Positions 1 to 22,871 of a DNA stretch of 57,419 nucleotides are shown piece by piece. The stretch comes from an uncultured Bacteroidota bacterium (lineage in GTDB: Bacteria; Bacteroidota; Bacteroidia; Flavobacteriales; UBA7312). The notes beneath the pieces were generated by a model that worked only from the letters and a program-made list of their open reading frames with translations, made no database searches and was not told the origin of the DNA. Location of the stretch: positions 1 to 57,419 of the forward strand of contig CACHMF010000004.1 in NCBI GenBank assembly GCA_902580855.1. The letters run 5' to 3'. Both the position numbers and the translations under genes were made by a program. Every line of letters starts with the position of its first letter. Within the stretch, counting starts at the first letter, position 1.

Positions 1-1350
1 GGTAAAATGGGACAAATTAAAGAACAGGGTTATCGCTTTGATACGGGCCCATCACTTTTCACTAAACCCCATCTATTAGAAGAACTTATTCTTTTGTGCA
101 ACAAAGAACCAAATGAGTATTTTCATTATTATAAGCTCAATGAATCATGCCGATATTTTTTTGAAGACCAAACTATGATTATCGGTTATTCAGATTCAAA
201 GCTTTTAGCAAAAGAGCTTTCTAAAAAGACTAATATTGATTCCTCAAAGGTTATTAATCACTTAAAAAAAAGCGCTTTTCTTTATAATTCTACTAGAAGA
301 TTATTTTTAGAGAATTCATTACACAAGCTTTCTACCTATCTTAATTTCAAATCGTTTATTGCCATATGCAAAATACCTTTTCTTGATCTATTCACATCTA
401 TGAGCAAACGAAACAAAAAGCGTTTCAACGATACAAAAACTGAACAAATCTTCAATCGTTATGCTACATATAATGGATCAGATCCTTTTAAAGCTCCTGC
501 AATTTTAAACTTAATCCCACATCTTGAAATTAATCAAGGAGCATACTTTCCTGAAAAAGGAATGCGCTCTATTTCAAATTTATTAGAACGCCTGTGCAGA
601 GAAATGGGCGTGCATATACATACAAACACAAGTGTAGAAAGTATTTCTCATGAAAACCAAAAAGTTAATGGTGTTCATACCAAAAATGAATTTCACGAAT
701 CAGATATAGTTATTTGCAATCAGGATATTTATTTTGTTTATGAACGCCTATTAAAAAACAAAAAAGTTGCTCAGGATTTAAAGCAACAGGAACGTTCAAC
801 TTCAGCAATCATTTTTTACTGGGGTATTAATAAGGAATTTGATGACTTGAAGCTTCACAATATCTTTTTTTCAAAAAATTACAAGGACGAGTTTAATGAG
901 ATTTCTTGCGAAAAGAATGTGCCTGATGATCCGACTATTTATGTAAACATTACTAGTAAAGAACAAAAAAATGATGCTCCAAAAAATTGTGAGAATTGGT
1001 TTGTTATGATCAATACCCCTTCAAATTATGGTCAGGATTGGGAAACTATCGTTTCTAGAGCTAGGAAAAATATAATTGATAAGCTAAATAGAATTTTGGG
1101 CACCACAATTGAGCATCATATTGTTTTCGAGAATATATTAGACCCGCGAAGTATTGAGTCAAAAACAGGTTCTTATAAAGGATCATTATACGGATCAGCT
1201 TCTAACAAAAGAAAAGCAGCTTTTTTTAGACATCCAAACTTTTCTAAAAATATTCAAGGTTTATATTTTTGTGGTGGTAGCGTTCATCCTGGAGGCGGGA
1301 TTCCATTGGCATTATCATCGGCTAAAATTGTAGACAAATTGATTGCATGA
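1..1350 (+). CDS. crtD: 1-hydroxycarotenoid 3,4-desaturase (CrtD, phytoene desaturase family), 5'-truncated by the window edge
   Basis: Frame is open from base 1 (G-K-M-G...GYRFDTGPSLFT follows the missing FAD-binding GxGxxG motif). C-terminal 'FFRHPNFS..IQGLYFCGGSVHPGGGIPLALSSA' is typical of Bacteroidota CrtD. Adjacent to cruF. Confidence 0.85.
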   Translation, partial: GKMGQIKEQGYRFDTGPSLFTKPHLLEELILLCNKEPNEYFHYYKLNESCRYFFEDQTMIIGYSDSKLLAKELSKKTNIDSSKVINHLKKSAFLYNSTRRLFLENSLHKLSTYLNFKSFIAICKIPFLDLFTSMSKRNKKRFNDTKTEQIFNRYATYNGSDPFKAPAILNLIPHLEINQGAYFPEKGMRSISNLLERLCREMGVHIHTNTSVESISHENQKVNGVHTKNEFHESDIVICNQDIYFVYERLLKNKKVAQDLKQQERSTSAIIFYWGINKEFDDLKLHNIFFSKNYKDEFNEISCEKNVPDDPTIYVNITSKEQKNDAPKNCENWFVMINTPSNYGQDWETIVSRARKNIIDKLNRILGTTIEHHIVFENILDPRSIESKTGSYKGSLYGSASNKRKAAFFRHPNFSKNIQGLYFCGGSVHPGGGIPLALSSAKIVDKLIA

Positions 1351-1967
1351 GAAATCATAAAGAAAATATTGGATTAGCACTATTAATAATTATCAATATA
1401 GTAGGTGTTGTTGGATTTCGTTCAGATTGTCTTTTGCCTTATTTTAAATCATTAACTCCATTTAATCTGCTTTTCTCTCTTTTGATCTGCTTTTTCTACC
1501 TTCCATGGAGATCCTTTATTTCTATTTTTCTTCTTCTATTTTCTATAGGTTTTGGTGTAGAGTTTCTAGGTGTAAAAACAGGCCTTCTTTTTGGAAGTTA
1601 TGAATACGGTTCTACACTGGGTTTTAAATGGTATAACGTTCCTTTAATTATTGGCGTAAATTGGTTTGTACTTGCAATAGGAGCAAGAGGGTGTGCGAAC
1701 CGTATTACTGAAAATACTATCTTCCAAGTTTTGTGTGCTGCTTTATTTATGGTAGGATTAGATTATTTTATTGAACCTGTGGCTATGAAATATGACTTTT
1801 GGGACTGGTCTCAAAACAAAGTTCCACTGCAAAATTATTTTATGTGGTTTCTTGTTTCTATATTGATGCAAATTTTGTTGAATAAAAGGAGCATACAAAT
1901 ACCCTTTTCACTTGCATTTGCTATACTAATCTCGCAATTCATTTTTTTCGGAGCCTTATTATTATGA
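1347..1967 (+). CDS. cruF: carotenoid 1,2-hydratase (CruF / carotenoid biosynthesis membrane protein)
   Basis: Multi-TM protein with 'E.LGV.TG..FG.Y.Y...LG', 'VP..IG.NW', 'D...EPVA', 'VP.QNY..W' motifs. ATGA overlap with crtD. Confidence 0.85.
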   Translation: MRNHKENIGLALLIIINIVGVVGFRSDCLLPYFKSLTPFNLLFSLLICFFYLPWRSFISIFLLLFSIGFGVEFLGVKTGLLFGSYEYGSTLGFKWYNVPLIIGVNWFVLAIGARGCANRITENTIFQVLCAALFMVGLDYFIEPVAMKYDFWDWSQNKVPLQNYFMWFLVSILMQILLNKRSIQIPFSLAFAILISQFIFFGALLL

Positions 1968-2674
1968 TAGATTGGTTAGACACTAGGCACTACTATTTAC
2001 TTTTAATGCTATTAAGTATCAGTTACCCCTTTATTAGAAGTTTTGAAAATAAGATAAGTTTCTATAAAAACTGGAAGGCTTTAGCATTGGCCATAACACT
2101 TATGATGATGATTTTTATTACGTGGGATGTTATTTTCACAACTCTTTCGGTATGGTCATTTAATGACAGGTATATTTTAGGGTACAAGCTTTTGAGTTTA
2201 CCCATTGAAGAGTGGATGTTTTTTGTTTGTGTACCTTATTCATGTATATTTATTCATGAAGTATTAAATTATTTCTTTCCACTAAAAAAAATCAATATAA
2301 ATATACATAGGTGGAATTATTGGGTTGCATTACTGTTAATTGTTATCGGAGTTGTATGTTGGAGCAAAATATATACCTGTGTTTGTTTTACACTTACAGG
2401 TCTATTTTTGTTATTGTTACAACGAAAAAATACTCAACTAATAGCAGTAACATATCGTACTTTTATAGTGAGTCTAATACCTTTTTTTATTGTTAACGGG
2501 ATATTGACAGGAGCATTAACAGATGAGCCAATCGTAATGTATAATAATTTACAAAACACTATGATCAGAATAATCACAATTCCTATTGAAGATTTTGTTT
2601 ATTGCTTATTTATGCTCGGGTTAACGATTTGGATTTACGAATCACAAAAAAAGAGGATAAAATCTAAACCTTAG
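1964..2674 (+). CDS. crtY: lycopene cyclase, fused membrane CrtYcd type
   Basis: Two repeats of the P(I)EE/ED motif ('LPIEEWMFF', 'IPIEDFVY'), plus 'WD' and 'VNGILTG'. ATGA overlap with cruF. Confidence 0.85.
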   Translation: MIDWLDTRHYYLLLMLLSISYPFIRSFENKISFYKNWKALALAITLMMMIFITWDVIFTTLSVWSFNDRYILGYKLLSLPIEEWMFFVCVPYSCIFIHEVLNYFFPLKKININIHRWNYWVALLLIVIGVVCWSKIYTCVCFTLTGLFLLLLQRKNTQLIAVTYRTFIVSLIPFFIVNGILTGALTDEPIVMYNNLQNTMIRIITIPIEDFVYCLFMLGLTIWIYESQKKRIKSKP

Positions 2675-2682
2675 CTTTTTAT

Positions 2683-2690
2683 TATTTTTG
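2683..2690 (+). promoter_or_regulatory. Bacteroidota sigma-A -7 element TATTTTTG upstream of GT4 gene
   Basis: Matches TAnnTTTG; the ATG starts 5 nt after the final G. Confidence 0.55.
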
Positions 2691-2694
2691 CAGC

Positions 2695-3732
2695 ATGGCT
2701 AAAAGGCAAAAGGTTTTTTTAGGTGCATATGTCAATAGTATAAATGCGCAAAACTTAAATTGCAGAGCTCTAGCACTACATTTAGATTCGAAAAGATTTA
2801 AATGTAGTGCAATGGAGTTACAAACAGGAGAATTATCTTCCCTTTCTGGTTCAATAAAAATTTTTAAAGTATGCTGGCCACATCGGCTTAACAAGTATAC
2901 CTCCTACCTAAGAGGTATTTTATGGGCGGACGTAGTATATCTGCCCAAAAGAGAAGTGTCAAGATGGTGTCGATTTTTATGTTGGTTATTCAAAAAGCCA
3001 AGTTTTAGCACTATGGAAAGTGTTGACGAGGGGGCAAACTGGGATAAACAGCTAAAAAAATTTGGAAATAAAATAGCATACTTGAGACACTACAAGGGAT
3101 TTAACAAGCTTTTTGCAATAAGTAAATTTATTTCTAATAAAAATGCAGATTTACATGAAATAAGTTTCGATGGTTTGTTGCCTTTGGGAGTGGATTCAAC
3201 TTCTTTTGATAGCAATATTAAAAAAGAACTTCAATCAGTAATTTTAATAGGGAATAACTTATACTATAAAGGTTGGCGATTTTATTTACAGTTAGCTACG
3301 GCATTTCCGACTATCACTTTTCATGTGGTAGGAAGTGGGGTAGGATTGGTTGACCCGAAAAAAGAAAGTCAACATCTAAACAATGTTGTTTGTCATGGAC
3401 GGTGCACACATCACGAGCTAAACGAAATTCTTAAAACTGTAGATCTTCATATTTTGCCCTCTAGAAACGAAGGCTTCCCAAAAGTAGTTTTAGAATGTGC
3501 GGCTGCAGGTATTCCTAGTTTACTTTTTTCAGATTATGGAGCAAAAGAATGGATGGAAGGAGGCTTTGTAGTTGAAAAGAATGAAGAAATGAAGCAAATA
3601 ATTAATTTGCTATTACAGGATCCAAATCGTCTGTGTCAAGCATCAAGCCAGTCAATACTACTAGCAGAAAAGTATGATTGGAAACATGTTGTAAAGCATT
3701 GGGAAGAAGTATTGAGCAGCTTAAGTCCTTAA
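2695..3732 (+). CDS. glycosyltransferase family 4 (GT-B)
   Basis: C-terminal 'ILPSRNEGFPKVVLECAAAGIP' E-x7-E motif and 'KYDWKHVVKHWEEV' terminus. Confidence 0.85.
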   Translation: MAKRQKVFLGAYVNSINAQNLNCRALALHLDSKRFKCSAMELQTGELSSLSGSIKIFKVCWPHRLNKYTSYLRGILWADVVYLPKREVSRWCRFLCWLFKKPSFSTMESVDEGANWDKQLKKFGNKIAYLRHYKGFNKLFAISKFISNKNADLHEISFDGLLPLGVDSTSFDSNIKKELQSVILIGNNLYYKGWRFYLQLATAFPTITFHVVGSGVGLVDPKKESQHLNNVVCHGRCTHHELNEILKTVDLHILPSRNEGFPKVVLECAAAGIPSLLFSDYGAKEWMEGGFVVEKNEEMKQIINLLLQDPNRLCQASSQSILLAEKYDWKHVVKHWEEVLSSLSP

Positions 3733-3772: not shown

Positions 3773-3780
3773 TAACTTTG
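3773..3780 (+). promoter_or_regulatory. -7 promoter element TAACTTTG for the 3828-11048 operon
   Basis: Exact TAnnTTTG(C) match in the 95-bp intergenic region. Confidence 0.6.
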
Positions 3781-3827: not shown

Positions 3828-5354
3828 ATGAAATTAGCCAACAATCTATTAATTGCAATAATAATGTTGCTTTTTAATTCGGCTTATTCCCAAACCATAG
3901 GAGAGTCTTCAGTTTATTTTATGTACTCTCCATTGCAAAGTAGTACCACCTATTTAGTAGATACTGATGGGGTAGTATATCATACATGGGATTGTATTGC
4001 TAGCCCAGCTAGTACAGCATATCTTCTTCCTGATGGAAGTATTATTCGACCGTATAGAGTTAGTAGCCCAACTATGATGGGAGGAGCAACAGGTGGTGGA
4101 ATGCAGCGTATAGATTGGAACGGAAATGTTATATGGGACTACACTTGGTCTGATCCTAATCATCAACAGCACCACGAGTGTATTCCAATAGATCAAGGAA
4201 ATGGGAATTATAATGTGTTAATTATTTCTTGGGAGCGAAAAAGTAATGTAGAAGCTATTCAAGCTGGGCGTCAAAATGTAAATGGAGAAATGTGGCCCTT
4301 AGAAATTTTAGAAATAGAGCCTCAAGGAAATAATGGTGGGAATGTTGTTTGGGAATGGCATGCTTGGGATCACCTTTGTCAAGATATTGATTCTACAAAA
4401 GATAACTATTATATAGATTGTTCGTTACATCCAGAACTTATAGATGTGAATATTGGAACATTACCAAGTGGAGGGCCGTTAGGAGGCAGTGGAGACTGGA
4501 TACACGCTAATGGTATTGATTATTGTCCAGAACTTGATCAAATTGTTTTCAGCTCTCATAAGCTACATGAAATATTTGTAATTGACCATAGTACTACAAT
4601 TAATGAGTCAGCGAGCCATAGCGGAGGAAATTCTGGGATGGGAGGAGATATCTTATATCGTTGGGGCAATCCTCAAAATTATGGAGCAGGAACAGCAGCA
4701 GACCAAATTCTTCATGTAGTTCATAGTGCTAACTTTATCGATACTGGATATCCAGGAGAGGGCAATATATTAATGTTTAATAACGGAGATAGAAGCGGTT
4801 CTCAAAATGACTATTCTTCGGTTGAAGAAATAACAGCTCCTTTGAGCGGATATACCTATAATCTACCGTATAACCAAAGTCAGCATTGGATGTACTCTAA
4901 TGGCGGGACATTTTATTCAAATCATTTATCAGGAGCCTTCAGGTTAAAAAACGGCAATACATTAGCAACAGAAGGAACTTCGGGAAGAATTTCCGAAATT
5001 GACAATAATGGAAATATTATTTTTCAATACACTCATCAAGGCGGAGGAAGTAACATGGCTAAAGCGGTTCCATATGAGAAGGATTATGAAGGAATATTGG
5101 GTTTAGCAACAGGTGTTTCGACTCATGAGAAACAAGTATATCACATATATCCAAACCCGGCAAATCATTTTATTCAGCTTTCAACAGATGAGGAAGGTGA
5201 ACTTAAAATTATAGATTTTCTAGGGAAAGTGAGCCATGTAGAATCATTTAAGAAAAGTAGCCGTATAAATATAGAGAATTTACCCAGTGGTGTTTATTAC
5301 ATACAATTGCAAACAACAGAACATTTGTACACAAAATCCCTTATTATTCAATAA
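3828..5354 (+). CDS. arylsulfotransferase (ASST)-like beta-propeller protein with T9SS type A C-terminal sorting domain
   Basis: Signal peptide (SAYS/Q). 'QHHE', 'VWEWHAWDHL', 'DWIHANGIDY', 'GDILYRWGNP.NY', 'ILMFNNG' are ASST motifs. C-terminal 'IYPNPAN...LPSGVYYI...KSLIIQ' CTD. Confidence 0.8.
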   Translation: MKLANNLLIAIIMLLFNSAYSQTIGESSVYFMYSPLQSSTTYLVDTDGVVYHTWDCIASPASTAYLLPDGSIIRPYRVSSPTMMGGATGGGMQRIDWNGNVIWDYTWSDPNHQQHHECIPIDQGNGNYNVLIISWERKSNVEAIQAGRQNVNGEMWPLEILEIEPQGNNGGNVVWEWHAWDHLCQDIDSTKDNYYIDCSLHPELIDVNIGTLPSGGPLGGSGDWIHANGIDYCPELDQIVFSSHKLHEIFVIDHSTTINESASHSGGNSGMGGDILYRWGNPQNYGAGTAADQILHVVHSANFIDTGYPGEGNILMFNNGDRSGSQNDYSSVEEITAPLSGYTYNLPYNQSQHWMYSNGGTFYSNHLSGAFRLKNGNTLATEGTSGRISEIDNNGNIIFQYTHQGGGSNMAKAVPYEKDYEGILGLATGVSTHEKQVYHIYPNPANHFIQLSTDEEGELKIIDFLGKVSHVESFKKSSRINIENLPSGVYYIQLQTTEHLYTKSLIIQ

Positions 5355-6418
5355 TGAAAAAGATAATATTTATTATTCCATTCTTGTTGTGCTTTCAAAA
5401 AGTAAAGGCACAATCCATAATATTACCTGAATTAAATTTAGCAACCTCATTTTATTTTGATCAATGGGTACTAAGCTCAGATACCTTTTTTGTAGCACCT
5501 GTTTATATTGACACCTATCTAGATTTTAATGAATTTCATTTAAATATTAAATATAACCATAATGTAGTAGAGCCCTTAATTAGTGAGTTAAACCAAATCA
5601 ATGACGATAGCTATATTATGGTTGCCAACTATATGGGTTTTGCTGATTTTGCAATGGTTAGTGGAGGTAATATTACTGGTGTAGTGAACACTATAAATGC
5701 GTCACAATCACTTCTAACCTTGTCGTTTAACGGAAGTACTGCCGCACAAACATTGTTTAATTCTTGTAATGGGAACTTATTATATTTAGCTTTTAAAAAG
5801 GTTAATCCTTGCTTCAAAGGGCCTTTTTATTTGCAGTTTTGGAATGGAGATGATAATGGAGCCTTTATCAATCCAAACCAAACACATGCATGTCAAATTA
5901 TCGGGACAACAACTACCCACTCTACAGAAACTGGAAATCTTTTAGCGGTCCAAGGAGAGGTTACTTTTGATATCCCACAAGCAAATATTCAGTTAAATGG
6001 AAATATTTTAGAAGCATTTGTAGTAGGTGGTTCATTGCCGCTATCTTATGAATGGTCTGACAAGTTTGGAACGGTGTTAGGGAGTAGTTATGATTACTCT
6101 CCGATTGATACGGGAATGGTTGTACTAACTGTCATAGATGCAGATGGATGCATGAGTGTCACAAGCCATAATTTTTATTTTTCTTCAAGCACTATTAATG
6201 AGGAAAATAGCTTTCAGACTATATATCCAAACCCTTCAGGGGGTATAATTCATTTGCAGAAAGAGATAGACAGAGTTGTGGTCTTAAATACAATGGGGAA
6301 CGTATGTTATTTAGGAAAAGAAAAAGTTATAGATTTAACATCATTTCAGAAAGGAGTTTATTTGATTCAAACAACAAGAAATAATTACACAACAACCGAA
6401 AAAATAATATTGCATTGA
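5354..6418 (+). CDS. T9SS cargo protein: probable cohesin-like beta-sandwich, SprB/Ig-like repeat and type A CTD
   Basis: Signal peptide (KVKA/Q). 'GGSLPLSYEWS...LTVIDADGC' SprB-like repeat and 'IYPNPSGG...KGVYLI...EKIILH' CTD. The cohesin call rests on alternating beta-strand pattern only. TAATG coupling to the upstream gene. Confidence 0.6.
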   Translation: MKKIIFIIPFLLCFQKVKAQSIILPELNLATSFYFDQWVLSSDTFFVAPVYIDTYLDFNEFHLNIKYNHNVVEPLISELNQINDDSYIMVANYMGFADFAMVSGGNITGVVNTINASQSLLTLSFNGSTAAQTLFNSCNGNLLYLAFKKVNPCFKGPFYLQFWNGDDNGAFINPNQTHACQIIGTTTTHSTETGNLLAVQGEVTFDIPQANIQLNGNILEAFVVGGSLPLSYEWSDKFGTVLGSSYDYSPIDTGMVVLTVIDADGCMSVTSHNFYFSSSTINEENSFQTIYPNPSGGIIHLQKEIDRVVVLNTMGNVCYLGKEKVIDLTSFQKGVYLIQTTRNNYTTTEKIILH

Positions 6419-8637
6419 TAAAGAAATATGTTTGGGCCTTATTGGTTCTTTGTTGGGGACATGCACATACACAATCATTGTACGATAACACCAATGTTAC
6501 GACAATTGAAATCTTCTTTTCCACCTCTAATTGGGATCAGATTTTAGACAATTATTATGCCGCAGGCATGGATCAGAGGTTAATTGCTGATTCAGTTGTG
6601 ATTAATGGAAGCATGAAGGACAGTGTTGGAGTGAAGTATAAAGGTAACAGCACTTACAATGCTAACAATGATAAAAATCCATTAAACCTGTCTTTAGACT
6701 ATATCAAAGGAAATCAAGATTATCAAGGGTTTAGAACTATTAAGCTATCTAATGGAAAAAATGATCCATCTTTTATTCGAGAAGTTCTTTCTTATGAAAT
6801 AGCGCGAAAATATATGGTGGCCCCGCAATCTAATTTTGCAGAGGTGCATATTAACGGGAATTATCACGGAATGTATGTTAATTCAGAGTCTATAAATTCT
6901 GACTTTCAAGATGATTATCTCTACGCTGATCGAGACAATACGCGCTTTAAGTGCAATCCGGAAACTGTCTTTGGAGGCAACGGCTCTTCTTTAGAATACT
7001 TAGGAACCGACTCTGCTTTTTACGAAGATTATTATGAGTTGAAGTCTGATTTTGGTTGGCAAGATTTAATCAACCTTACATATGATATAGTTAATAATCC
7101 ATTAAACTTAGAATCTTCATTAGATATTGATAGAGCATTATGGATGTTAGCATTTAACAATGTCCTGGTGAACCTTGATAGCTATACAGGGCCTTTCCGT
7201 CAGAATTATTACTTAATAAAAGATAATAATAATCGAATGAACCCGATTATTTGGGATTTAAATGAGTGTTTAGGCGGTTTTGAAATGATTAATAATGGAG
7301 GAGGCCCTCCCTCGCTTCAAAATTTAATCCAACTTGACCCTTTAATTAGAATCAATGAAGCTGACTGGCCACTAATACAAACACTACTGAATAATGACAC
7401 TTATCAGCGAATGTATATAGCGCATATGCGAACAATTCTAGAAGAGAATTTTTCAAATGGACTATACCTAACAAGAGCCAACGATTTACAATCTCTAGTG
7501 AGTAGCTTGATTCAGGCAGATGCTAATTCGTTTTATTCTTTTAACGATTTTTCAAATAATATTAATAATTCTGTTGGTGGAGGTCCTAGTGGCTCAGTAG
7601 GAATTACAGAATTGATGGATGCTAGAACAAATTTTTTACAATCACATTCTTTGTTTTTAGTTGCTCCACCTAGTATTGGAGCAGTGTCATCAACTCCATT
7701 ACAAATAAACCCTTACACTGAACCATTTATTACGGTAGATGTTAGTAATGCCACAAATGTATATTTAGCCTATAGGTTTAGGCCACAAGATGTATTTACA
7801 AAACTCGAAATGTTTGATGATGGAATGCATGGAGATGGAAGTGCAGGAGATGGGATTTATGGTATAGATGTTATGGTAGACGCTAGAGATATGCAGTATT
7901 ACATTTATGCTGAAAACAATGATGCAGGAGTATTTTCTCCAGAAAGGGCAGAGCATGAATATCATTATCTTCCTGTTGTTAGCGATTTAGTAATCAACGA
8001 GTTAATGGCGTCTAATATGAATGCGGTAGCAGATCAAAATGGAGAATATGATGATTGGGTAGAGTTATACAATAACGGCACAAACTCAATCATGCTAGAT
8101 GGCTATTTTCTTTCTGATAATGAAAATAATCTAGGTAAATGGCAATTTCCTAACACAGTCCTTCCATCTGGAGGATACTTAACAGTTTGGCTTGATGGAC
8201 AGGATGGATTACAAGCAGGTTTACACACAAGTTTTAAACTATCTGCTGATGGAGAGGAACTGTTTTTGTCAACCCCAACTTTAGACGTGGTCGATGCTAT
8301 TTTTTACACAGCTCTCCCTACAGACATGTCGTTTGCTCGTGTTCCAAACGGAACAGGCCCTTTTACAGTTCAGGCACATACAAACAATGCTAATAACAAT
8401 GGGGTGCTAGAGGTTTTACATTTAGAAAATGAAGTTCTTCTTTATCCAAATCCAACACAGTCAACAATAACAATTGAGCATCCTTCGATAGAAAAGATTG
8501 CTATTTATGATGTGATGGGGAAGTTAATGCATCTAGAAAAATCATACGAAACAACAACAATAAATTGCGAGCATTGGCCTGCAGGAATGTATATTGTAAA
8601 AGTAGGAACTCAAGCACATCGTTTAATTATTCAATAA
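6415..8637 (+). CDS. CotH-family kinase with choice-of-anchor X, lamin-tail domain and T9SS CTD
   Basis: 'VGVKYKGNST', 'REVLSYEI', 'NLDSY...NYYL', 'PIIWDLN' CotH motifs. 'MFDDGMHGDGSAGDGIYG' (anchor X), 'LVINELMASN..DQNGEYDDWVELYN' (LTD), 'LYPNPT...GMYIVKV' CTD. TTG start overlaps the upstream TGA. Confidence 0.88.
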   Translation: MIKKYVWALLVLCWGHAHTQSLYDNTNVTTIEIFFSTSNWDQILDNYYAAGMDQRLIADSVVINGSMKDSVGVKYKGNSTYNANNDKNPLNLSLDYIKGNQDYQGFRTIKLSNGKNDPSFIREVLSYEIARKYMVAPQSNFAEVHINGNYHGMYVNSESINSDFQDDYLYADRDNTRFKCNPETVFGGNGSSLEYLGTDSAFYEDYYELKSDFGWQDLINLTYDIVNNPLNLESSLDIDRALWMLAFNNVLVNLDSYTGPFRQNYYLIKDNNNRMNPIIWDLNECLGGFEMINNGGGPPSLQNLIQLDPLIRINEADWPLIQTLLNNDTYQRMYIAHMRTILEENFSNGLYLTRANDLQSLVSSLIQADANSFYSFNDFSNNINNSVGGGPSGSVGITELMDARTNFLQSHSLFLVAPPSIGAVSSTPLQINPYTEPFITVDVSNATNVYLAYRFRPQDVFTKLEMFDDGMHGDGSAGDGIYGIDVMVDARDMQYYIYAENNDAGVFSPERAEHEYHYLPVVSDLVINELMASNMNAVADQNGEYDDWVELYNNGTNSIMLDGYFLSDNENNLGKWQFPNTVLPSGGYLTVWLDGQDGLQAGLHTSFKLSADGEELFLSTPTLDVVDAIFYTALPTDMSFARVPNGTGPFTVQAHTNNANNNGVLEVLHLENEVLLYPNPTQSTITIEHPSIEKIAIYDVMGKLMHLEKSYETTTINCEHWPAGMYIVKVGTQAHRLIIQ

Positions 8638-8639
8638 TA

Positions 8640-9044
8640 ATGAAGAAAGGAATCACAATACTCAGCCTACTAATTCTTGTTGCAGCGTGCGACAAGCCTT
8701 CAGGGGAAGGAGGAACTTCTTCCATCGAAGGTAAAATTTTAGTTCTAGAAGGGTTTTATAATGTATTTACTCAGAGTTTTGATACAACAGCATTGTATTT
8801 TTCTGAAAATGAAGACGTCTATATTATTTACGGAAGCGATTCATCCAGTATATATAACGATTCATTTGAAACATCTTGGGATGGAACGTATCGATTCGAT
8901 TATTTGCGCAAAGGAAACTATGTGCTGTACGCATACAGTGATTGTGATAGTTGCCCATCAGGCAAAGAGCCTGTTTTTTGGGAGGTAACGATTGACAAAA
9001 ACAATCAATTATATCAGATTTCGGATCAAGTAATACGCAAGTAA
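8640..9044 (+). CDS. lipoprotein, probable prealbumin/carboxypeptidase-regulatory-like fold, with CxxC
   Basis: Start reassigned to ATG 8640 (MKKGITILSLLILVAAC, lipobox). 'DGTYRFDYLRKGNY.LYAYS' beta-sandwich pattern and 'CDSC'. Confidence 0.7.
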   Translation: MKKGITILSLLILVAACDKPSGEGGTSSIEGKILVLEGFYNVFTQSFDTTALYFSENEDVYIIYGSDSSSIYNDSFETSWDGTYRFDYLRKGNYVLYAYSDCDSCPSGKEPVFWEVTIDKNNQLYQISDQVIRK

Positions 9045-9045
9045 A

Positions 9046-9786
9046 TTGAGCGAATTAATTAAGCAAATATCGTTATTTGAACCTATATCATTGTCGGAGA
9101 TGGACAGTGTGAAGCTAATGAATCGTTCCGATACGAAATTCGTTTTTTCAAACCAAACGCTCTTGCAAATATTACCAAAACTACAAGGATACTATCGAGT
9201 TCTAGAAATTGAAAACATACGCTTAAGCTCGTATCAATCGTTATATTATGACACCGAAGATTTTCAATTTTACCACCAACATCACAATGGTAAAACCAAC
9301 AGAAACAAGGTTCGCTATAGAGAATATATAGATTCTGGAATTTCTTTCCTTGAGGTTAAGCATAAAAACAATAAAGGCAAAACGATCAAAAAGCGCATTC
9401 CTGTAAATGCGATTCAAGAAATGTTAGAGGGGGATCATCAATCTTTTGTTGATGAGGTGATAGGAGAAAATCTTAACCTAATACCTCAACACAGAAATAA
9501 ATTTCAACGGCTTACATTAGTGCACAAAATCAATAAAGAACGCCTGACAATTGATATTAACTTTCAATATCAAAACACGATTAAACAAGGCGGGGTTGAA
9601 CAGTTGGTAATTGCCGAAGTTAAACAAGAAAAGAAGAGTCGATCTTCAGATTTTATAAGAATTATTAAAGAAGCGGGCGTTCATCCTTTTAGGATCAGCA
9701 AATACTGTATTGCTACAGCCAGTTTATACACAGAATTAAAAAGGAATAATTTCAAAATGAAATTTTTACATTTAAACAAAATTTAA
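9046..9786 (+). CDS. VTC-domain polyphosphate polymerase (CYTH/triphosphate tunnel superfamily)
   Basis: 'LMNRSDTKF', 'Y.SLYYDT', 'R.KVRYREY', 'FLEVKHK', 'KKR', 'ERLTID', 'IAEVKQ', 'ISKYC' motifs. TTG start. Confidence 0.88.
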   Translation: MSELIKQISLFEPISLSEMDSVKLMNRSDTKFVFSNQTLLQILPKLQGYYRVLEIENIRLSSYQSLYYDTEDFQFYHQHHNGKTNRNKVRYREYIDSGISFLEVKHKNNKGKTIKKRIPVNAIQEMLEGDHQSFVDEVIGENLNLIPQHRNKFQRLTLVHKINKERLTIDINFQYQNTIKQGGVEQLVIAEVKQEKKSRSSDFIRIIKEAGVHPFRISKYCIATASLYTELKRNNFKMKFLHLNKI

Positions 9787-9790
9787 AATA

Positions 9791-10432
9791 ATGAACGAGT
9801 TATTGTTATTGCTAACAGATTTAGAAATATTCGGAACGGATTTTTTCGATAAAAAAGATTTTTTTGAGTTACTGATAAAGGCTGTTTTTAACTTTTTTAT
9901 CATTGCCTATATCGTTCGCTATTTATATTACCCAGCAACAAAAAACAAAGATTATCTATTTACCTATTTATTGATTAGTATCACGGTATTCTTTCTTTGT
10001 TTCTTGCTAGAAAATGTGAAGTTACAACTAGGGTTTGCGCTAGGTCTTTTCGCCATCTTTGGGATTATTCGCTATCGAACAGATCCTATTCCAATTAAAG
10101 AGATGACTTATTTGTTTATTGTGATTGGAGTTTCTGTAATAAACGCTTTAGCAAACAAAAAAATCAGTCATTCCGAGTTACTATTTGCAAACTTTATAAT
10201 CATAGCTGTCACCTACGGGTTGGAAAAAATATGGTTATTGCGACACGAAACACGCAAAACCATTACCTATGAAAAAATAGAGCTTATCAAACCTTCAAAG
10301 AAAGAAGAATTGATGGCAGACTTAAAGGAACGAACAGGACTAAATATCACGCGCATAGAGGTGCGTAGAATAGATTTTTTAAGAGATACGGCTCAAATAA
10401 GAATCTTCTTTTTCGAAGATGAAAAAGCTTAG
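9791..10432 (+). CDS. DUF4956 family inner-membrane protein
   Basis: 'LGFALGLFAIFGIIRYRTDPIPIKEMTYLF' signature, about 5 TM helices, C-terminal 'L.ADLKERTGL.I..IEV..IDFLRD'. Usual neighbour of VTC genes. Confidence 0.88.
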   Translation: MNELLLLLTDLEIFGTDFFDKKDFFELLIKAVFNFFIIAYIVRYLYYPATKNKDYLFTYLLISITVFFLCFLLENVKLQLGFALGLFAIFGIIRYRTDPIPIKEMTYLFIVIGVSVINALANKKISHSELLFANFIIIAVTYGLEKIWLLRHETRKTITYEKIELIKPSKKEELMADLKERTGLNITRIEVRRIDFLRDTAQIRIFFFEDEKA

Positions 10433-11048
10433 CATATTATGTTGCTTGTTGCCGCTCTTTGCGATTGGTCAAGATGATTTTCAACTTTGGTCTAAAGTAG
10501 AATTAGGATATAAAATCAACAAAAAGGTATCCGTAGAGCTTACAGAAGGATTTCGTTTAAGAGAAAACGCATCTCTTCCATCTAAAACATTTACAGATTT
10601 TAACGCTACCTATAAGCATAACAAAAAAGTAAGAATAGGAACGGGTTATCGTTTCATTCAGGTTTTCAACCTTGCACAAGACATTCATTTGCGACATCGT
10701 TGGTATGTCTATATGACATTGAGACAAAAAGTAAAAAGATATCAATTTGGCTTTCGTTCTCGTATACAACACCAAAAAGGAGTTGATCATTTAGAGCGAT
10801 ATTATAGAGGGAAAATATCGGCTTCTTATAATTTCCGAAAAACACCTCTGGAGCCAACTATTTCTATAGAGTCTTTCCTGAATTTACAATCTCCCCAATT
10901 TGATAAATTTCGCTACACGGCAGCTCTTTCATATCCGTTACGTAAAAAAGTGCAAGCAAGCTTATATTACCGTATTCAGCAAGAAATTAATGTGTCTTTC
11001 CCTAATACGTTTTACATATTAGGCGCAGGGGTTTCTTACAATTTTTAA
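10419..11048 (+). CDS. DUF2490-like outer-membrane beta-barrel protein
   Basis: Signal peptide (FAIG/Q), 'DFQLW' N-terminus, amphipathic strands, many Arg, C-terminal aromatic 'GVSYNF'. 14-bp overlap with DUF4956. Confidence 0.75.
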   Translation: MKKLSILCCLLPLFAIGQDDFQLWSKVELGYKINKKVSVELTEGFRLRENASLPSKTFTDFNATYKHNKKVRIGTGYRFIQVFNLAQDIHLRHRWYVYMTLRQKVKRYQFGFRSRIQHQKGVDHLERYYRGKISASYNFRKTPLEPTISIESFLNLQSPQFDKFRYTAALSYPLRKKVQASLYYRIQQEINVSFPNTFYILGAGVSYNF

Positions 11049-11100: not shown

Positions 11101-11108
11101 TAAATTTG
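11101..11108 (+). promoter_or_regulatory. -7 promoter element TAAATTTG for the gingipain-like gene
   Basis: TAnnTTTG match. It overlaps the track's GTG start, which supports ATG 11132 as the real start. Confidence 0.5.
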
Positions 11109-11131: not shown

Positions 11132-14100
11132 ATGAAAAAGAGAATTGGGATATTTATAGCAGTATTATTAAGTTCTTTAGTTTCTGCACAACAGATTACG
11201 TTTAATTCAGAAACAAATGATGTTGTTTTAACAGCTAATACAGAACAGTATTTTGAAGTTTTTTCTGGCATTCAATCAATAGAGTCTATTAATGTTAACA
11301 CATCTGAGGGGATTTTTACAAAACTGATTCTTCCTGGATACGTCCATTCGAAAGAATTCGGTAAGCCTGAGCTTCCTCAAATACAAAAACTTATAGAAAT
11401 TCCATTTGGGGCAGAAATAAAAACAGACATTTTAGCGTATGAAAAACAAACGCTATTACTTTCAGATTATGGCATTGTAAACCCATTAATACCATCTCAG
11501 CCGTCTATATCAAAAGCAGAGGATGCCGCTAATGTTCCGTTTAAATATTATCCACAGATATATCAACAAAATGAATTTTTAGGAAAAGAAATTGTTACCG
11601 TAGAACCTTTAGGAGTATTAAGAGGTGTTCAAATGGCAAGATTAACAATAGCTCCATTTAAATATAACCCAGTAACAAACGAGTTAATGGTGTTTAACAA
11701 TCTTGAGGTTCAAGTAGATTTTGGCGATGCTGACTATGAAGAAACAGTAATTCAGAAGCAAAAACATTATTCAGCAGCTTTTAATCCAAGCTATTTAGAG
11801 CTTTTAAACTACAAGCCGTTAGCTAAAGATGTTATCACAACATATCCGGTTAAATATGTTATTGTTTCTGACCCGATGTTTCAATCCGACCTACAAGGTT
11901 TTGTGGAATGGAAAACGAAAAAAGGATTCACGGTCGTTGAAGCTTATACGAACGATCCTGCAGTAGGAAATACAACAACTTCTATTAAAGCATATTTAGA
12001 AGGACTTTATAATGCAGGGTCACCTTCTGATCCAGCTCCATCTTATGTATTATTTGTTGGTGATGTGGCACAAGTACCTTCTTTTAGCGGAAATACTGGC
12101 TGGCATGTTTCAGACTTGTATTATTGTACTTATGATGGGCCTTCGGATATTTATCCAGACATGTATTATGGTAGGTTCTCAGCAACAAATTCTTCACAGC
12201 TAATGCCTCAGATAGAAAAGACACTAATGTTTGAGGAGTACACCTTTCCAGACCCTTCTTATTTAGATGAAGTTTTATTGGTTGCAGGTGTAGATGCTAG
12301 CATGGCACCTACTTATGGCAATGGACAAATAAATTATGGAACTGACAACTATTTTAATTCCGCGCATGGAATAACATCGCATATTTATTTATATGGTTCG
12401 GGAAGTCCAGTAACTTCAGATCAATCCATAGCATCAGGACTTATTATTGATGATGTAAATAATGGAGTTGGCTTTGCTAATTATACAGCGCATTGTTTTG
12501 AGCAAGGATGGGCAGACCCCTCATTTGAATCTAGTGATGTCCCTGGATTAACAAATGAAAATGAATATTGCGTAATTGTTAGTAATTGCTGCTTACCAAA
12601 TGCCTTTGATAATGCAGAATGTTTTGGAGAAGCGATTTTAAGAGCTCACGGTAAAGGTGCAGTTGGACACATTGGAGGATCTAACAATACTTATTGGAAT
12701 GAAGATTATTGGTGGGCAGTCGGAACAGGTTCAATCTCAGCAAATCCTACTTATACTCAAACAGGTCTTGGTGTTTTTGATTGCCTGTTTCATGAAAATG
12801 GTGAGCCAGTTTCTGACTGGTTTGTTAGCTTATCTCAAATGGTACATTCAGGAAACCTTGCTGTTACAGCAGCGGGAGGATCAGAAGATTATTATTGGGA
12901 AATATACCATGTAATGGGTGATCCATCTTTAATGCCTTATATGTCAGTCCCAGACCCTATGACAGTAACGCACTTAGCAACAACTCCTCTAGGATCCTCA
13001 ACATTAAATGTGTCAGCAGAAGAAAATGCATATGTAGCTGTTTCTCAAAATGGCATCTTATTAGACGCTCAGTTAGTGGGAGCTAGCGGAAATGTAACAA
13101 TGACTTTTGCCCCACTTGCTTCTATGGGAGTGTTAGATGTAGTGGTAACAAAGCAAGACCGTCAGCCTTACATTGGAGCAGTTCAGGTTATATCCACAAA
13201 CGCGCCATTTATTACAGCGATTTCTTATCAGATTGATGATGCAGCGGCGAATAACAATCAACTCGCTGATTTTAACGAACAATTTTATTTGGACGTAGAT
13301 TTTCAAAACCTAGGCAGTATAACTGCATCAGGTGTTACAGCTACTCTTACCTCTTCAGATCCTAATGTTACGATTATTGATGGGGTAGAAAATCTAAATA
13401 CTATAACATCTTCAACAACCATAAATGCAACTGGTGCATATGAACTAGCAATTGCCGACGGTATTCAAGATCAACACATTGTAGTGATGGATGTTGCTAT
13501 TACAGATAATGCGTCCAATACTTGGAACGTACCAATCAACATTGTTGTAAATGCTCCTGAACTTAATGTTGGAGGTTTTGAATTGATAGATGCTTCAGGT
13601 AACGGGATTTTAGAGCCCGGAGAAACAGCAACCATCAATATTGAAAATTTTAATGATGGATCTGCTGACTGTGGTAGTTCTGACGCTATTTTAAGTACAA
13701 CAAACATGTATGTTAGTATCACTTCCTCATCATATAACTTTATTAGTTTCCCTCAAGGAGGCACAATGCAGCAAGCATCGTTTACTATCCAGGCAGACGC
13801 AAACATTCCTTATGCAACTGCTGTAACATTTGATTACGATTTATCATTTGGTCTTTATAATGCACAAGAGTCTTTTGACATTATAGCTAATATGGCTAGT
13901 GAAGATTATGAAACAGGCAATATGTTGCAATATGATTGGTCTGTTTCAGGAAATGCTCCTTGGCTTATTGTTGGAACAGGGCAGTTTGAAGGTGATCATT
14001 GTGCGAAATCTGGTCCAATTGGAGGTAATCAAGTGTCTACTATGGAATTAGAATTAAATGTAGCAGTGCCTGGCGAGGTATCATTTTATAAAAAGGTTTC

Positions 14101-14566
14101 TACAGAAGACGGATATGATTATTTGCAATTTTATATTGATAATACCTTAAGAGATGAGTGGTCGGGTGTAATAGATTGGTCAAAAGAATCTTATTTTTTA
14201 ACATCTGGAGTTCATACACTAAAATGGGAATATGTAAAAGATGGTTGGGTAGATGAAAATGATGATTGTGCATGGGTAGATTATATACTATTCCCTCAAT
14301 TAGTTTCAAGTACTGATATAGAAGATCAATTAACATTTGATGTTCAGATTACACCCAACCCCGCATCAAATCAATGCTCTATAAATTTTGATAAAATGGT
14401 TGACGCAAGAGTTCAATTATACGACACGCAAGCGCGATTGATTCTAGAAAAGAATACGGCTGGAGAATCAATTTTATTGAATTTAAGTAATTTAGCAACA
14501 GGTGTATACTATTTAGAGATACATTCAGAGGAAGATAAAATTGTAGAAAAGCTAATAATCAAATAG
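11132..14566 (+). CDS. C25 family cysteine peptidase (gingipain, Kgp-like) with propeptide, Ig-like domains and T9SS CTD
   Basis: Start MKKRIG at 11132 (track gives 11108). Propeptide 'GKPELP', catalytic 'FANYTAHC' and 'SNCCL', 'YWEIYHVMGDPSLMPY', CTD 'ITPNPAS...GVYYLEI...EKLIIK'. Confidence 0.9.
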   Translation: MKKRIGIFIAVLLSSLVSAQQITFNSETNDVVLTANTEQYFEVFSGIQSIESINVNTSEGIFTKLILPGYVHSKEFGKPELPQIQKLIEIPFGAEIKTDILAYEKQTLLLSDYGIVNPLIPSQPSISKAEDAANVPFKYYPQIYQQNEFLGKEIVTVEPLGVLRGVQMARLTIAPFKYNPVTNELMVFNNLEVQVDFGDADYEETVIQKQKHYSAAFNPSYLELLNYKPLAKDVITTYPVKYVIVSDPMFQSDLQGFVEWKTKKGFTVVEAYTNDPAVGNTTTSIKAYLEGLYNAGSPSDPAPSYVLFVGDVAQVPSFSGNTGWHVSDLYYCTYDGPSDIYPDMYYGRFSATNSSQLMPQIEKTLMFEEYTFPDPSYLDEVLLVAGVDASMAPTYGNGQINYGTDNYFNSAHGITSHIYLYGSGSPVTSDQSIASGLIIDDVNNGVGFANYTAHCFEQGWADPSFESSDVPGLTNENEYCVIVSNCCLPNAFDNAECFGEAILRAHGKGAVGHIGGSNNTYWNEDYWWAVGTGSISANPTYTQTGLGVFDCLFHENGEPVSDWFVSLSQMVHSGNLAVTAAGGSEDYYWEIYHVMGDPSLMPYMSVPDPMTVTHLATTPLGSSTLNVSAEENAYVAVSQNGILLDAQLVGASGNVTMTFAPLASMGVLDVVVTKQDRQPYIGAVQVISTNAPFITAISYQIDDAAANNNQLADFNEQFYLDVDFQNLGSITASGVTATLTSSDPNVTIIDGVENLNTITSSTTINATGAYELAIADGIQDQHIVVMDVAITDNASNTWNVPINIVVNAPELNVGGFELIDASGNGILEPGETATINIENFNDGSADCGSSDAILSTTNMYVSITSSSYNFISFPQGGTMQQASFTIQADANIPYATAVTFDYDLSFGLYNAQESFDIIANMASEDYETGNMLQYDWSVSGNAPWLIVGTGQFEGDHCAKSGPIGGNQVSTMELELNVAVPGEVSFYKKVSTEDGYDYLQFYIDNTLRDEWSGVIDWSKESYFLTSGVHTLKWEYVKDGWVDENDDCAWVDYILFPQLVSSTDIEDQLTFDVQITPNPASNQCSINFDKMVDARVQLYDTQARLILEKNTAGESILLNLSNLATGVYYLEIHSEEDKIVEKLIIK

Positions 14567-15228
14567 TGAAAAAAACCGTATTCATATTATTTTTATCATT
14601 AGTATCGAGCTCACTTAGTGCTCAGTCAATTTTTCAAACGCTTTTTACTTCTACTGATGAGCAGGGACAGCTAGGTAGTATGACAGAAATCACGGGTTTA
14701 GTTATCAATAACGACTGTTGTACAGTAACTAAGTTTATACAACACTTAACTTCTTGTGAAATGCCATCTGATTGGCTATGGAGTCATTGCACCCCTGATA
14801 TGTGCTTGCCAACAGGAGATTCGCTAGGGTATTATTATTTAATGCCATCTGATACAGGCGAAGTATCCTTTCGTTTTTATGTGGGGAACACACCGGGGTC
14901 AGCCGAAATGAACATAAGATTTGCTGACAGGGACAATCTATCGGATTATCAGGATGTCCAATTTACCGTTTGGGCAGGCACTAGTGATTTGCAAGAATCT
15001 AATTGGCAACTTCTCATTTACCCCAATCCAGTGAATAATTTCATTCATATTGATGGAGACATTTCAGATCTAACTTGCGATCTTTTTGATGTAAGAGGTA
15101 AAAATTTGTTAAGCTCACTGAATGTGGAAGGAAGAAAGATAAATGTATCAAACATTCAACCAGGAGTATATTTTCTAGCCTTACACAAGCCCGGTGGAAG
15201 GCTAATTAAACGCATCATCATTCAGTAG
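14566..15228 (+). CDS. small Cys-rich T9SS cargo protein (Ig-like domain plus type A CTD)
   Basis: GTG start overlapping the upstream TAG. Signal peptide (SLSA/Q), 'WLWSHCTPDMCLP', CTD 'IYPNPVNN...PGVYFL...KRIIIQ'. Confidence 0.75.
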   Translation: MKKTVFILFLSLVSSSLSAQSIFQTLFTSTDEQGQLGSMTEITGLVINNDCCTVTKFIQHLTSCEMPSDWLWSHCTPDMCLPTGDSLGYYYLMPSDTGEVSFRFYVGNTPGSAEMNIRFADRDNLSDYQDVQFTVWAGTSDLQESNWQLLIYPNPVNNFIHIDGDISDLTCDLFDVRGKNLLSSLNVEGRKINVSNIQPGVYFLALHKPGGRLIKRIIIQ

Positions 15229-22863: not shown

Positions 22864-22871
22864 TTAAGTCG

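Follow-up and report, generated by a model that had tools for sequence, protein, structure and literature searches.

The subject of this analysis is a compact row of seven genes at positions 3828 to 11048 of a 57,419-nucleotide (nt) stretch of DNA, contig CACHMF010000004.1 of an uncultured Bacteroidota bacterium of the order Flavobacteriales (UBA7312; GenBank assembly GCA_902580855.1); we refer to the whole stretch as the window. Within this row, a pair of genes encoding a VTC protein and a DUF4956 inner-membrane protein is flanked by genes for a lipoprotein and for a DUF2490 outer-membrane β-barrel. Our leading, if tentative, reading is that these four genes form an envelope module to which variable cargo of the type IX secretion system (T9SS) is added, and that together they make up a synthase-dependent export line. 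The host assembly comprises 1.34 Mb on 69 contigs and is 75% complete; the closest named relatives of its genes are metagenome-assembled genomes (MAGs) of marine Flavobacteriales, and the locus is present in seawater or marine metagenome runs from 12 studies.

Open reading frame (ORF) analysis of the window placed all seven genes on the (+) strand, co-oriented and tightly packed. The first three encode T9SS cargo, namely g1 (3828–5354), a secreted ASST-family β-propeller with a T9SS type-A C-terminal sorting domain (CTD; PF05935, 1.4e-17; PF18962, 2e-13); g2 (5354–6418), in which a signal peptide, a part of ~270 amino acids (aa) without a family and a CTD follow one another (PF18962 only, 1.3e-8); and g3 (6415–8637, TTG start), a secreted CotH kinase-like protein with a lamin-tail domain (LTD) and a CTD (CotH, 7.1e-38; LTD, 3.3e-15; CTD, 4.2e-13). 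These are followed by g4 (8640–9044, ATG start), a lipoprotein of 134 aa without a Pfam family whose signal peptide ends in LVAAC; g5 (9046–9786, TTG start), a cytoplasmic single-domain VTC protein of 246 aa (PF09359, 8.1e-28); g6 (9791–10432), the DUF4956 inner-membrane protein (PF16316, 7.2e-57); and g7 (10419–11048), the DUF2490 outer-membrane β-barrel, of the 12-strand class (PF10677, 2e-23). The g1/g2 junction is a TAATG with a 1-nt overlap at 5354, g2 and g3 share the 4 nt TTGA (6415–6418), the three following genes are set off by gaps of 2 nt (8638–8639), 1 nt (9045) and 4 nt (9787–9790), and g6 and g7 overlap by 14 nt (10419–10432). The seven co-oriented genes, with exactly these overlaps and gaps, had been described in the initial annotation of the window, and all of its calls of family and location held. 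A terminator scan found no terminator-like site between any of the seven genes, which from their packing are predicted to form one compact operon.

Two surveys of gene neighborhoods indicate which of these genes belong together. The close survey covered the 80 best loci of window-type DUF4956 in named records (55–84% identity), and its counts are given over the loci with enough flanking DNA. The distant survey covered ~20 kb around 40 of the 50 VTC matches outside the window in a phylum sample of 301 genomes (ten matches were left out), with ORFs labeled by Pfam and by profiles iterated from the window proteins; its VTC–DUF4956 count applies to the 39 loci with a picked VTC ORF, that of locus L029 having been missed by the picker. 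We found a co-oriented DUF4956 gene directly after VTC in 39/39 distant loci and VTC directly upstream of DUF4956 in 72/75 close loci. VTC and DUF4956 are an obligate gene pair and, judging from this arrangement, very probably also a functional one. Around the pair, DUF2490 was found downstream of DUF4956 in 34 of 73 close loci and the lipoprotein in 30 of 71, so that these two flank it in about half of the window-type loci. CotH lay within ~5 kb in 11 of 43 close loci and in 8 of 21 distant ones. Among the 19 loci (L005–L023) that come from the order or class of the window or carry a window-type DUF4956, hereafter the class-level loci, DUF2490 adjoined the pair in 11 and a small lipoprotein was present in five, with flanks made up mostly of unrelated housekeeping genes.

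The order CotH-LTD, lipoprotein, VTC, DUF4956, DUF2490 is common to five of the closest relatives (L073, L074, L076, L077 and L082) and occurs in partial form in L080 (without a DUF2490 label) and L085 (without a lipoprotein label). In Puteibacter caeruleilacunae JC036 (L133), the genes for the lipoprotein, VTC, DUF4956, DUF2490 and CotH are consecutive. The survey counts therefore give lipoprotein–VTC–DUF4956–DUF2490 as the conserved unit, and CotH is a frequent attached cargo of this unit rather than a core member. The initial annotation had envisaged a recurrent neighborhood of VTC, DUF4956, DUF2490, CotH and, possibly, ASST; of this, VTC–DUF4956 proved constant, DUF2490 accompanies it about half of the time and CotH in a minority of loci, whereas ASST did not hold up (see below).

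The association with CotH is stronger at the level of whole genomes. Each family was searched across all 301 genomes of the phylum sample, in which VTC was found in 47, DUF4956 in 90, CotH in 119 and DUF2490 in 103. By manual comparison of genome rows, DUF4956 and CotH were both present in 47/47 VTC-positive genomes, as the co-occurrence asserted in the initial annotation would have it; CotH was found in 72 of the 254 VTC-negative genomes. Relatives in such a sample are not independent, but VTC spans 35 genera. The control genomes that match VTC (Bacteroides thetaiotaomicron, C. glutamicum and M. acetivorans) match DUF4956 and CotH too, and that of B. thetaiotaomicron also matches DUF2490.

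The VTC protein g5 matched PF09359 with 98 bits (cut-off, 23). Single-sequence PDB searches with VTC, CotH and ASST gave nothing useful, and profiles were therefore used for structure matching. A VTC profile of 37 homologues matched Vtc4 (3g3q) at 2.3e-22, as against 5.8e-13 for Vtc2 and 1.9e-9 for Vtc3. Fifteen residues are invariant among the 37 sequences (K31, Y67, D69, R86, K88, R90, R92, Y94, E103, K105, K115, R117, R155, K219 and Y220) and a further set is nearly so (R27, Y76, R166, T168, D170, E191, K193 and S218), with R166, E191, K193 and S218 kept in at least 90%. Positions K31, R90, R92, E103, K105, K115, R117, R155, R166, E191, K193, S218 and K219 align with tunnel positions of Vtc4. 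Counting along the profile alignment, with a 3-residue offset between 5iiq and 8i6v, K31 corresponds to Vtc4 K200, R90 and R92 to R264 and R266, K105 to K281, R155 to R361, R166 to R373, E191 to E426, and S218 and K219 to S457 and K458; we take these Vtc4 residues, K200 among them, to be catalytic. On this alignment, g5 is a Vtc4-type triphosphate-tunnel enzyme and a candidate polyphosphate polymerase. Two longer matches, one of 452 aa (P0054) and one in a 778-aa ORF (L043, 8100–10436), were rejected as VTC–DUF4956 fusions; their N-terminal extras are domain-free, Arg/Gly/Pro-rich read-through of upstream GC-rich DNA.

Its partner g6 matched PF16316 with 192 bits (cut-off, 30.6). Across 37 DUF4956 sequences only L86, R94 and R96 are invariant, the two arginines forming an RxR within the motif GLFAIFGIIRYRT. 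An AlphaFold2 (AF2) model (pLDDT, 87) consists of five long helices and a C-terminal β-α-β-β domain with weak matches to ACT-type folds; the membrane part had no fold match above noise. Because of the positive-inside rule, we infer that R94 and R96 lie at the cytoplasmic end of helix 3 and that the C-terminal domain is in the cytoplasm. A search of PDB sequences with the DUF4956 profile gave no match. Complex prediction for VTC with DUF4956, from an alignment of 37 rows each, returned a score of 0.00, which weighs neither way. The initial annotation had cast the two proteins as a split Vtc4-like synthase and translocase; the obligate pairing and the retained Vtc4 tunnel speak for this idea, but no fold match of DUF4956 to the VTC channel was obtained.

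Other lineages of Bacteroidota provide an independent view of the pair. There, an ORF of ~345–386 aa without a Pfam family stands directly before VTC, and a profile of 16 such ORFs (from 16 loci) had 14 PDB matches at E ≤ 0.01, all of them membrane-fusion proteins; among these were 6vej, a TriA/B-type adaptor (1.2e-8), ZneB (1.3e-7), AcrA (8e-6) and EmrA (1e-5). Adding three further flanking ORFs to the profile brought the match to EmrA to 9.8e-12. In L028 and L040, an HlyD_3 protein is encoded directly after DUF4956, and in L050 an HlyD-like gene follows a DUF4956 gene that lacks VTC. A membrane-fusion protein was present in 1 of the 80 close loci, and no periplasmic adaptor is encoded among the seven genes of the window operon. 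A membrane-fusion protein at the VTC locus thus independently points to cross-envelope transport, at least as judged from profile matches. That separate lineages pair VTC–DUF4956 either with an adaptor or with a lipoprotein and a barrel is our strongest argument that the pair works across the envelope.

The barrel and the lipoprotein would be the corresponding parts in the window. g7 carries a signal peptide and matched PF10677 with 83.5 bits (cut-off, 29.8). Its AF2 model is a closed barrel (pLDDT, 90.4; pTM, 0.82) in which DSSP assigns 11 strands and which superposes on 12-strand barrels. The best fold matches were KdgM (Z 16.7; root mean square deviation, 2.2 Å over 156 aligned residues), NanC (Z 16.1) and VhGalP (Z 15.7); further barrels of 12 strands come next at Z ~15, a tie within 1–2 Z of KdgM and NanC, and the PgaA and PelB barrels were among the weaker matches. 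By strand alternation, 20 K/R and 7 D/E residues face the lumen, and the lumen side holds E151 and all of the conserved arginines (R46, R78, R94, R113, R130 and R165). The lipoprotein g4, with its lipobox LVAAC, has homologues directly before VTC in four loci (L014, L021, L022 and L023) and after DUF4956 in a fifth (L008). Its Atlas model (pTM, 0.81) matches β-sandwich clusters, and the protein is modeled as a prealbumin/NOMO1-like β-sandwich of a Bacteroidota family. The idea that g4 is a reduced membrane-fusion protein was rejected (hhalign probability, 0.1%), and the 142-aa ORFs found before VTC in L007 and L012 belong to a different family.

At the other end of the operon, g1, g2 and g3 all carry the type-A sorting domain of NCBIfam TIGR04183, and their secretion by the T9SS is credible because SprA and PorV were found in the host genome. 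g3 matched the CotH family (PF08757) with 131 bits, and a CotH-domain profile of seven sequences matched Bacillus cereus CotH (5jd9) at 8.3e-45. In the alignment with the B. cereus protein, two invariant residues of g3, D255 and D281, fall on its D224 and D247. In the published account at hand, these positions equal D228 and D251 of B. subtilis CotH, mutation of which inactivates the kinase (PMC7821199). Thus, the g3 CotH looks catalytically competent. Its inclusion in the system by the initial annotation stands insofar as both Asp residues are kept and CotH co-occurs with VTC across genomes, but the gene is adjacent in only a minority of loci. g1 matched PF05935 with 64.3 bits (cut-off, 24.2), and its ASST part had no PDB match by sequence. 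By Atlas features, g2 came at best to 0.82 of cohesin/PKD/SprB-type surface proteins, a lead only. Away from the VTC locus, the host genome has two further CotH genes, in open frames of 496 and 1,094 aa on two other contigs (L002 and L004 on C54 and C6).

The above findings can be arranged in a scheme of two layers. The first layer would be the conserved four-gene envelope module of lipoprotein, VTC, DUF4956 and DUF2490. In it, VTC, working on the cytoplasmic side of the membrane, would most likely build polyphosphate from the γ-phosphate of ATP. DUF4956 is probably oligomeric, and the elongating chain could be taken up by its invariant Arg pair and guided across the inner membrane. VTC and DUF4956 would then resemble a synthase-dependent exopolymer system, or a yeast VTC complex assembled with unrelated membrane components. 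The outer-membrane step would fall to the lipoprotein and the basic 12-strand barrel, a role that in other Bacteroidota would be taken by the membrane-fusion protein. The second layer would be variable T9SS cargo in which CotH recurs and to which the ASST-like propeller and g2 are added here; once the product is exported, CotH and the other cargo would act on it, or together with it, at the cell surface. We consider polyphosphate on balance the probable product. Its export is plausible, although we would stop short of calling it probable, and the arrangement as a whole suggests a polyphosphate made for use outside the cell. The use of polyphosphate by CotH as a phosphoryl donor is speculation on our part and rather unlikely. 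Slightly less likely still is the widest version of the proposal, in which several phyla would share a polyphosphate secretion machine made of a Vtc4-type polymerase, a DUF4956 translocon of a new kind and, in diderms, either an adaptor or a lipoprotein and 12-strand barrel, with the chain serving secreted CotH as its donor at sites devoid of ATP.

If this were true, that is, if a eukaryote-type polymerase is wired to envelope-crossing parts, some bacteria would make polyphosphate for the outside. Such a product would bear on biofilm matrices, on the capture of metals and calcium in seawater and on the host interactions of gut Bacteroides, and it would suggest where extracellular kinases, the secreted CotH among them, obtain their phosphoryl donor. 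From the comparison of loci and genomes, the question comes down to four genes and to tractable organisms such as B. thetaiotaomicron and P. caeruleilacunae JC036. The annotations of BT3498-99 in B. thetaiotaomicron are DUF4956 and DUF2490, and the table of an iron stimulon lists the two together at −7.6-fold with a p of 0.175 (PMC10434189).

Several observations weigh against an export line of this kind. The tunnel residues conserved in VTC are also common to triphosphatases of the same superfamily, the literature searches found no biochemical data on any bacterial VTC-domain protein, and a search for longer VTC forms found no VTC–DUF4956 fusion. With the DUF4956 model, Foldseek returned no match at E ≤ 1e-3, and the best VIA match (Z 9.9) was to helical proteins of archaeal viruses and fell under the helical noise; the chains of the yeast VTC channel (7ytj and 8i6v), to which DUF4956 may nonetheless bear some likeness, were not among the 50 VIA matches listed. 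The positive charge of the barrel turned out to be a family trait that is not specific to VTC: the mean net charge was +8.0 for VTC-linked DUF2490 proteins (n = 12; −3 to +18) and +9.4 for unlinked paralogues from the same genomes (n = 11, the ones recognized by the profile out of 20 fetched). The idea that VTC-linked barrels are specially cationic was therefore rejected. DUF2490 is, moreover, often present in multiple copies and without VTC, and a 2026 preprint describes, in the part available, networks of two cations, two anions and a Tyr that are buried rather than pore-lining in 238 of 2,789 DUF2490 models. The initial annotation had argued from a cationic barrel; the model does have a 12-strand, KdgM/NanC-like architecture and an Arg-rich interior, but the unlinked paralogues are as basic and no special adaptation is apparent. 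As for the cargo, CotH was adjacent in only 1 of the 19 class-level loci (L017, with a sorting domain). ASST, put forward as a member of the system, was carried by none of the 80 close loci and by 1 of the 40 distant ones (L038, in the order CotH-LTD, ASST with sorting domain, BNR propeller, adaptor, VTC, DUF4956). g1 is variable cargo outside the conserved module, and g1 and g2 are additions peculiar to this genome. Accordingly, the system as first drawn is to be reduced to the four-gene core plus CotH, and the cationic-barrel argument is withdrawn as specific evidence.

Bacterial polyphosphate is, in the textbook view, the product of PPK1 and PPK2 chemistry inside the cell, and some of the same observations suit a storage or homeostasis role. 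Under this alternative, polyphosphate remains in the cell or at the inner side of the membrane, DUF4956 serves as an anchor or regulator of the MgtC kind whose ACT-type domain acts as a sensor, and the barrel, lipoprotein and cargo have no chemical connection with it. The five helices and ACT-like C-terminal domain of DUF4956 would amount to an MgtC-like architecture, and MgtC was matched in Pfam by one DUF4956 homologue only, weakly (E 0.06); this likeness, a further point against an export line, is as compatible with a regulatory function as with a channel. The available part of a paper on S. intermedius likewise describes a DUF4956 homologue as MgtC-like with an ACT domain (PMC12345266). 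The absence of a fold match to known channels and the frequency of DUF2490 without VTC point the same way, as does the complement of polyphosphate enzymes in the host: PPK1 and PPK2 were not found in its genome and a Ppx/GppA gene was, although the first of these results is weak evidence because the genome is 75% complete. VTC without a PPK1 match also occurs in five other genomes of the sample, three of which (G295, G075 and G119, as distinct from G189 and G289) we count with the host (G000) in favor of storage. However, PPK1, which is present in 255 of the 301 genomes, is retained in 41/47 VTC-positive ones, and VTC is therefore an extra specialized system rather than a replacement for PPK1. 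The recurrence of a membrane-fusion protein, lipoprotein or barrel at the pair in separate lineages is hard to square with a purely cytoplasmic product, and the genome-wide coupling to a secreted CotH (47/47) is a further argument against storage. We regard this alternative as unlikely, yet it is the one to which we give the most weight after the export line.

DUF4956 also has a life of its own. In 43 of the 90 DUF4956-positive genomes it occurs without VTC, 34 of these 43 being in one family (f29), and its membrane function is therefore not strictly VTC-dependent. The f29 loci (L049–L052) have a fixed row of DUF6580, DUF4956, an HlyD-like protein of 330 aa, an unknown protein of 410 aa and a short-chain dehydrogenase. 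In L046 and L047, DUF4956 is followed by an ORF of 341–356 aa without a family and then by a gene for a metallophosphatase or purple acid phosphatase. In one further locus (L045, G135:C1), DUF4956 precedes DUF2490 with a CotH neighbor; Pfam detected no VTC at this locus or in this genome, and no PPK1 was found. The occurrence without VTC, beside HlyD-like or purple-acid-phosphatase genes, suits an exporter of a substrate other than polyphosphate, be it a cation, phosphate or some small anionic metabolite. VTC, as a triphosphatase or an NTP-dependent switch, would power or gate this DUF4956-based exporter, which would have membrane-fusion and outer-membrane proteins as partners. The triphosphate-tunnel fold of the CYTH/TTM superfamily indeed serves hydrolases as well as the Vtc4 polymerase. 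Nevertheless, the VTC profile is closer to the catalytic Vtc4 than to the non-polymerizing Vtc2 or Vtc3, and all residues that could be placed on the Vtc4 tunnel are retained, among them the Lys aligned with the catalytic K200 of Vtc4. Given this, we consider another substrate improbable and retain polyphosphate as the candidate product of the export line.

With respect to transcription, a Bacteroidota-type −7 promoter-like motif, TAACTTTG, lies at 3773–3780 on the (+) strand, 47 nt ahead of the ATG of g1 and within the 95-nt gap that separates g1 from an unrelated GT4 gene. A promoter ahead of g1 had been annotated initially, and a motif is indeed there, one base off the one originally noted. 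However, motifs of the class TAnnTTTG are no more frequent in the window than expected (71 observed vs 82.7 ± 9.7), and the case for a promoter therefore rests on position. A second promoter-like motif, TAAATTTG (11101–11108), lies in the 84-nt gap downstream of g7 and ahead of the next gene (ATG at 11133), which makes 11048 a plausible operon end. A scan for sigma-70 promoters was at chance level (58 sites vs 59.8 expected). Inside g4, ~70 nt before its stop, there is a terminator-like hairpin (8959–8973; CAGGC-AAAGA-GCCTG, then T6), which could reduce read-through into VTC or be a chance occurrence (the scan found 11 sites vs 7.0 ± 2.7 expected). Contigs from three metatranscriptome libraries, in which DNA carry-over is possible, cover parts of g1, g2, g3, g5, g6 and g7 at 92–99% likeness and leave other parts of the operon uncovered; none convincingly spans a gene junction. 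Expression of the locus is thus hinted at by RNA-library contigs.

The genes around the operon are of other kinds. Upstream (7–3732), a carotenoid gene row (an amine-oxidase-type desaturase, a carotenoid synthesis protein and a lycopene cyclase) is followed by the GT4 glycosyltransferase gene; together these genes may serve to glycosylate carotenoids and have no relation to the operon. Downstream (11133–14566) lies a gene for a C25-family peptidase of 1,144 aa with a propeptide, an Ig-like domain, a T9SS sorting domain and a weak PorU2-type N-terminal match (4e-8). Its stop is overlapped by the gene for a 220-aa sorting-domain protein (14566–15228), after which comes a rhomboid gene; counting g1–g3, the peptidase and this protein, there are five T9SS cargo genes. 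Further on (19831–26282), a TetR regulator, an outer-membrane efflux protein, an HlyD-type adaptor and an AcrB-type pump make up a standard resistance-nodulation-division (RND) efflux operon, the adaptor of which is the only membrane-fusion protein within the scanned part of the window (to ~32 kb).

In many Flavobacteriales loci, ORFs of ~160, 420 and 1290 aa lie after VTC–DUF4956(–DUF2490) on the opposite strand. These were seen in L010, L011, L075, L087, L089, L110, L112, L115, L118, L120, L121, L126 and L129, and after DUF2490 in L088, L103 and L105. In L010 and L011, Pfam reads the three as IspF (YgbB), PorV and a PorU-like C25 protein. Thus, the VTC module often abuts core T9SS genes, which may be merely inherited gene order. 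One of these loci (L075, PBNL01000005.1) is labeled as a Methanobacteriota archaeon MAG; it carries VTC and a DUF4956 protein 84% identical to that of the window, along with the three ORFs in the IspF/PorV/PorU-like pattern (judged by pattern rather than Pfam), and is most probably a contig of flavobacterial origin that was assigned to the wrong bin.

The combination of cotH, a polyphosphate-polymerase-domain gene and DUF4956 has already been described among the accessory genes of pel loci in Gram-positive bacteria (Whitfield 2020, PMC7112168) and is contiguous, according to that study, with pel operons in streptococci, clostridia and bifidobacteria. The trio also appears in the C. perfringens locus NELoc-2, as far as the source available to us goes (PMC2879425), and as SIR_1592-1594 in S. 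intermedius (PMC12345266). In the accessible portion of the latter report, deletion of the DUF4956-like gene or of cotH alters the Pel level and aggregation, cutting aggregation by >50% in 10% ASM, whereas no comparable drop in aggregation is given for the VTC deletion. This result adds to the points against our reading, being contrary, at least in that organism, to a strict pathway in which VTC feeds CotH. The authors of that report also state that they found the synteny of the three genes nowhere but at the Pel locus; the Bacteroidota trio loci, however, lie outside any Pel locus. New in the present analysis are the diderm form of the module, with its lipoprotein and DUF2490 barrel, the occurrence of a membrane-fusion protein in sister lineages, CotH as T9SS cargo, the counts of coupling at the genome level and the negative controls on the barrel and ASST.

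The contiguity with pel operons and the deletion phenotypes would also suit a trio that tunes an exopolysaccharide or surface-protein layer, in which CotH phosphorylates matrix components with ATP or another donor. VTC and DUF4956 would then have an indirect part, for instance by supplying polyphosphate that serves as counter-ion or chaperone. Genes for carbohydrate-binding Cthe_2159, CBM9/DUF5916 and glycoside hydrolases near some Bacteroidota loci are in line with such a role. Yet there is no polysaccharide synthase in or beside the window operon, the neighbors of which are the carotenoid genes with the single GT4 gene and the C25 peptidase, and housekeeping genes flank most class-level loci. 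We therefore rate a matrix accessory as the least probable of the alternatives and very improbable.

The export line can finally be compared with systems of known architecture. With the Gram-positive pel trio, the window shares the same three families, and there, too, the predicted locations are outside the cell for CotH, in the cytoplasm for VTC and in the membrane for DUF4956; it differs in having no pel genes and in adding a lipoprotein, an outer-membrane barrel and T9SS sorting domains. With the Bacillus CotH spore-coat kinase (5jd9), g3 shares the domain and both catalytic Asp residues; unlike it, g3 is predicted to be T9SS-secreted, is fused to a lamin-tail domain and a CTD, and involves no spore. 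The KdgM and NanC 12-strand porins for acidic sugars are the best structural matches to the g7 model, the interior of which is basic, at an identity to g7 of only 12–14%, and DUF2490 is a separate Pfam family.

The yeast VTC complex (3g3q, 7ytj and 8i6v), in which the polyphosphate polymerase Vtc4 is coupled to a membrane channel, is the closest parallel for the enzyme, in that g5 belongs to the same Pfam family as the catalytic domain of Vtc4, its tunnel residues can be aligned, and a soluble synthase stands beside a membrane protein in the window module. In contrast, g5 has neither an SPX domain nor a fused transmembrane domain, its membrane partner is encoded by a separate gene of another family (DUF4956) without detected fold likeness, and the module is set in the envelope of a diderm, together with an outer-membrane barrel or, elsewhere, a membrane-fusion protein. 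For the module as a whole, the parallel is with synthase-dependent secretion (Alg8/Alg44/AlgE, PelF/PelD-G/PelBC and PgaCD/PgaA) and tripartite efflux, which likewise combine a polymerase, an inner-membrane partner, an adaptor or lipoprotein and a barrel; the likeness to alginate and Pel secretion is a presumed one. Among these parts, only the membrane-fusion protein is homologous, the g7 barrel has 12 strands rather than 16–18, and the polymer exported by the window module would be an inorganic one.

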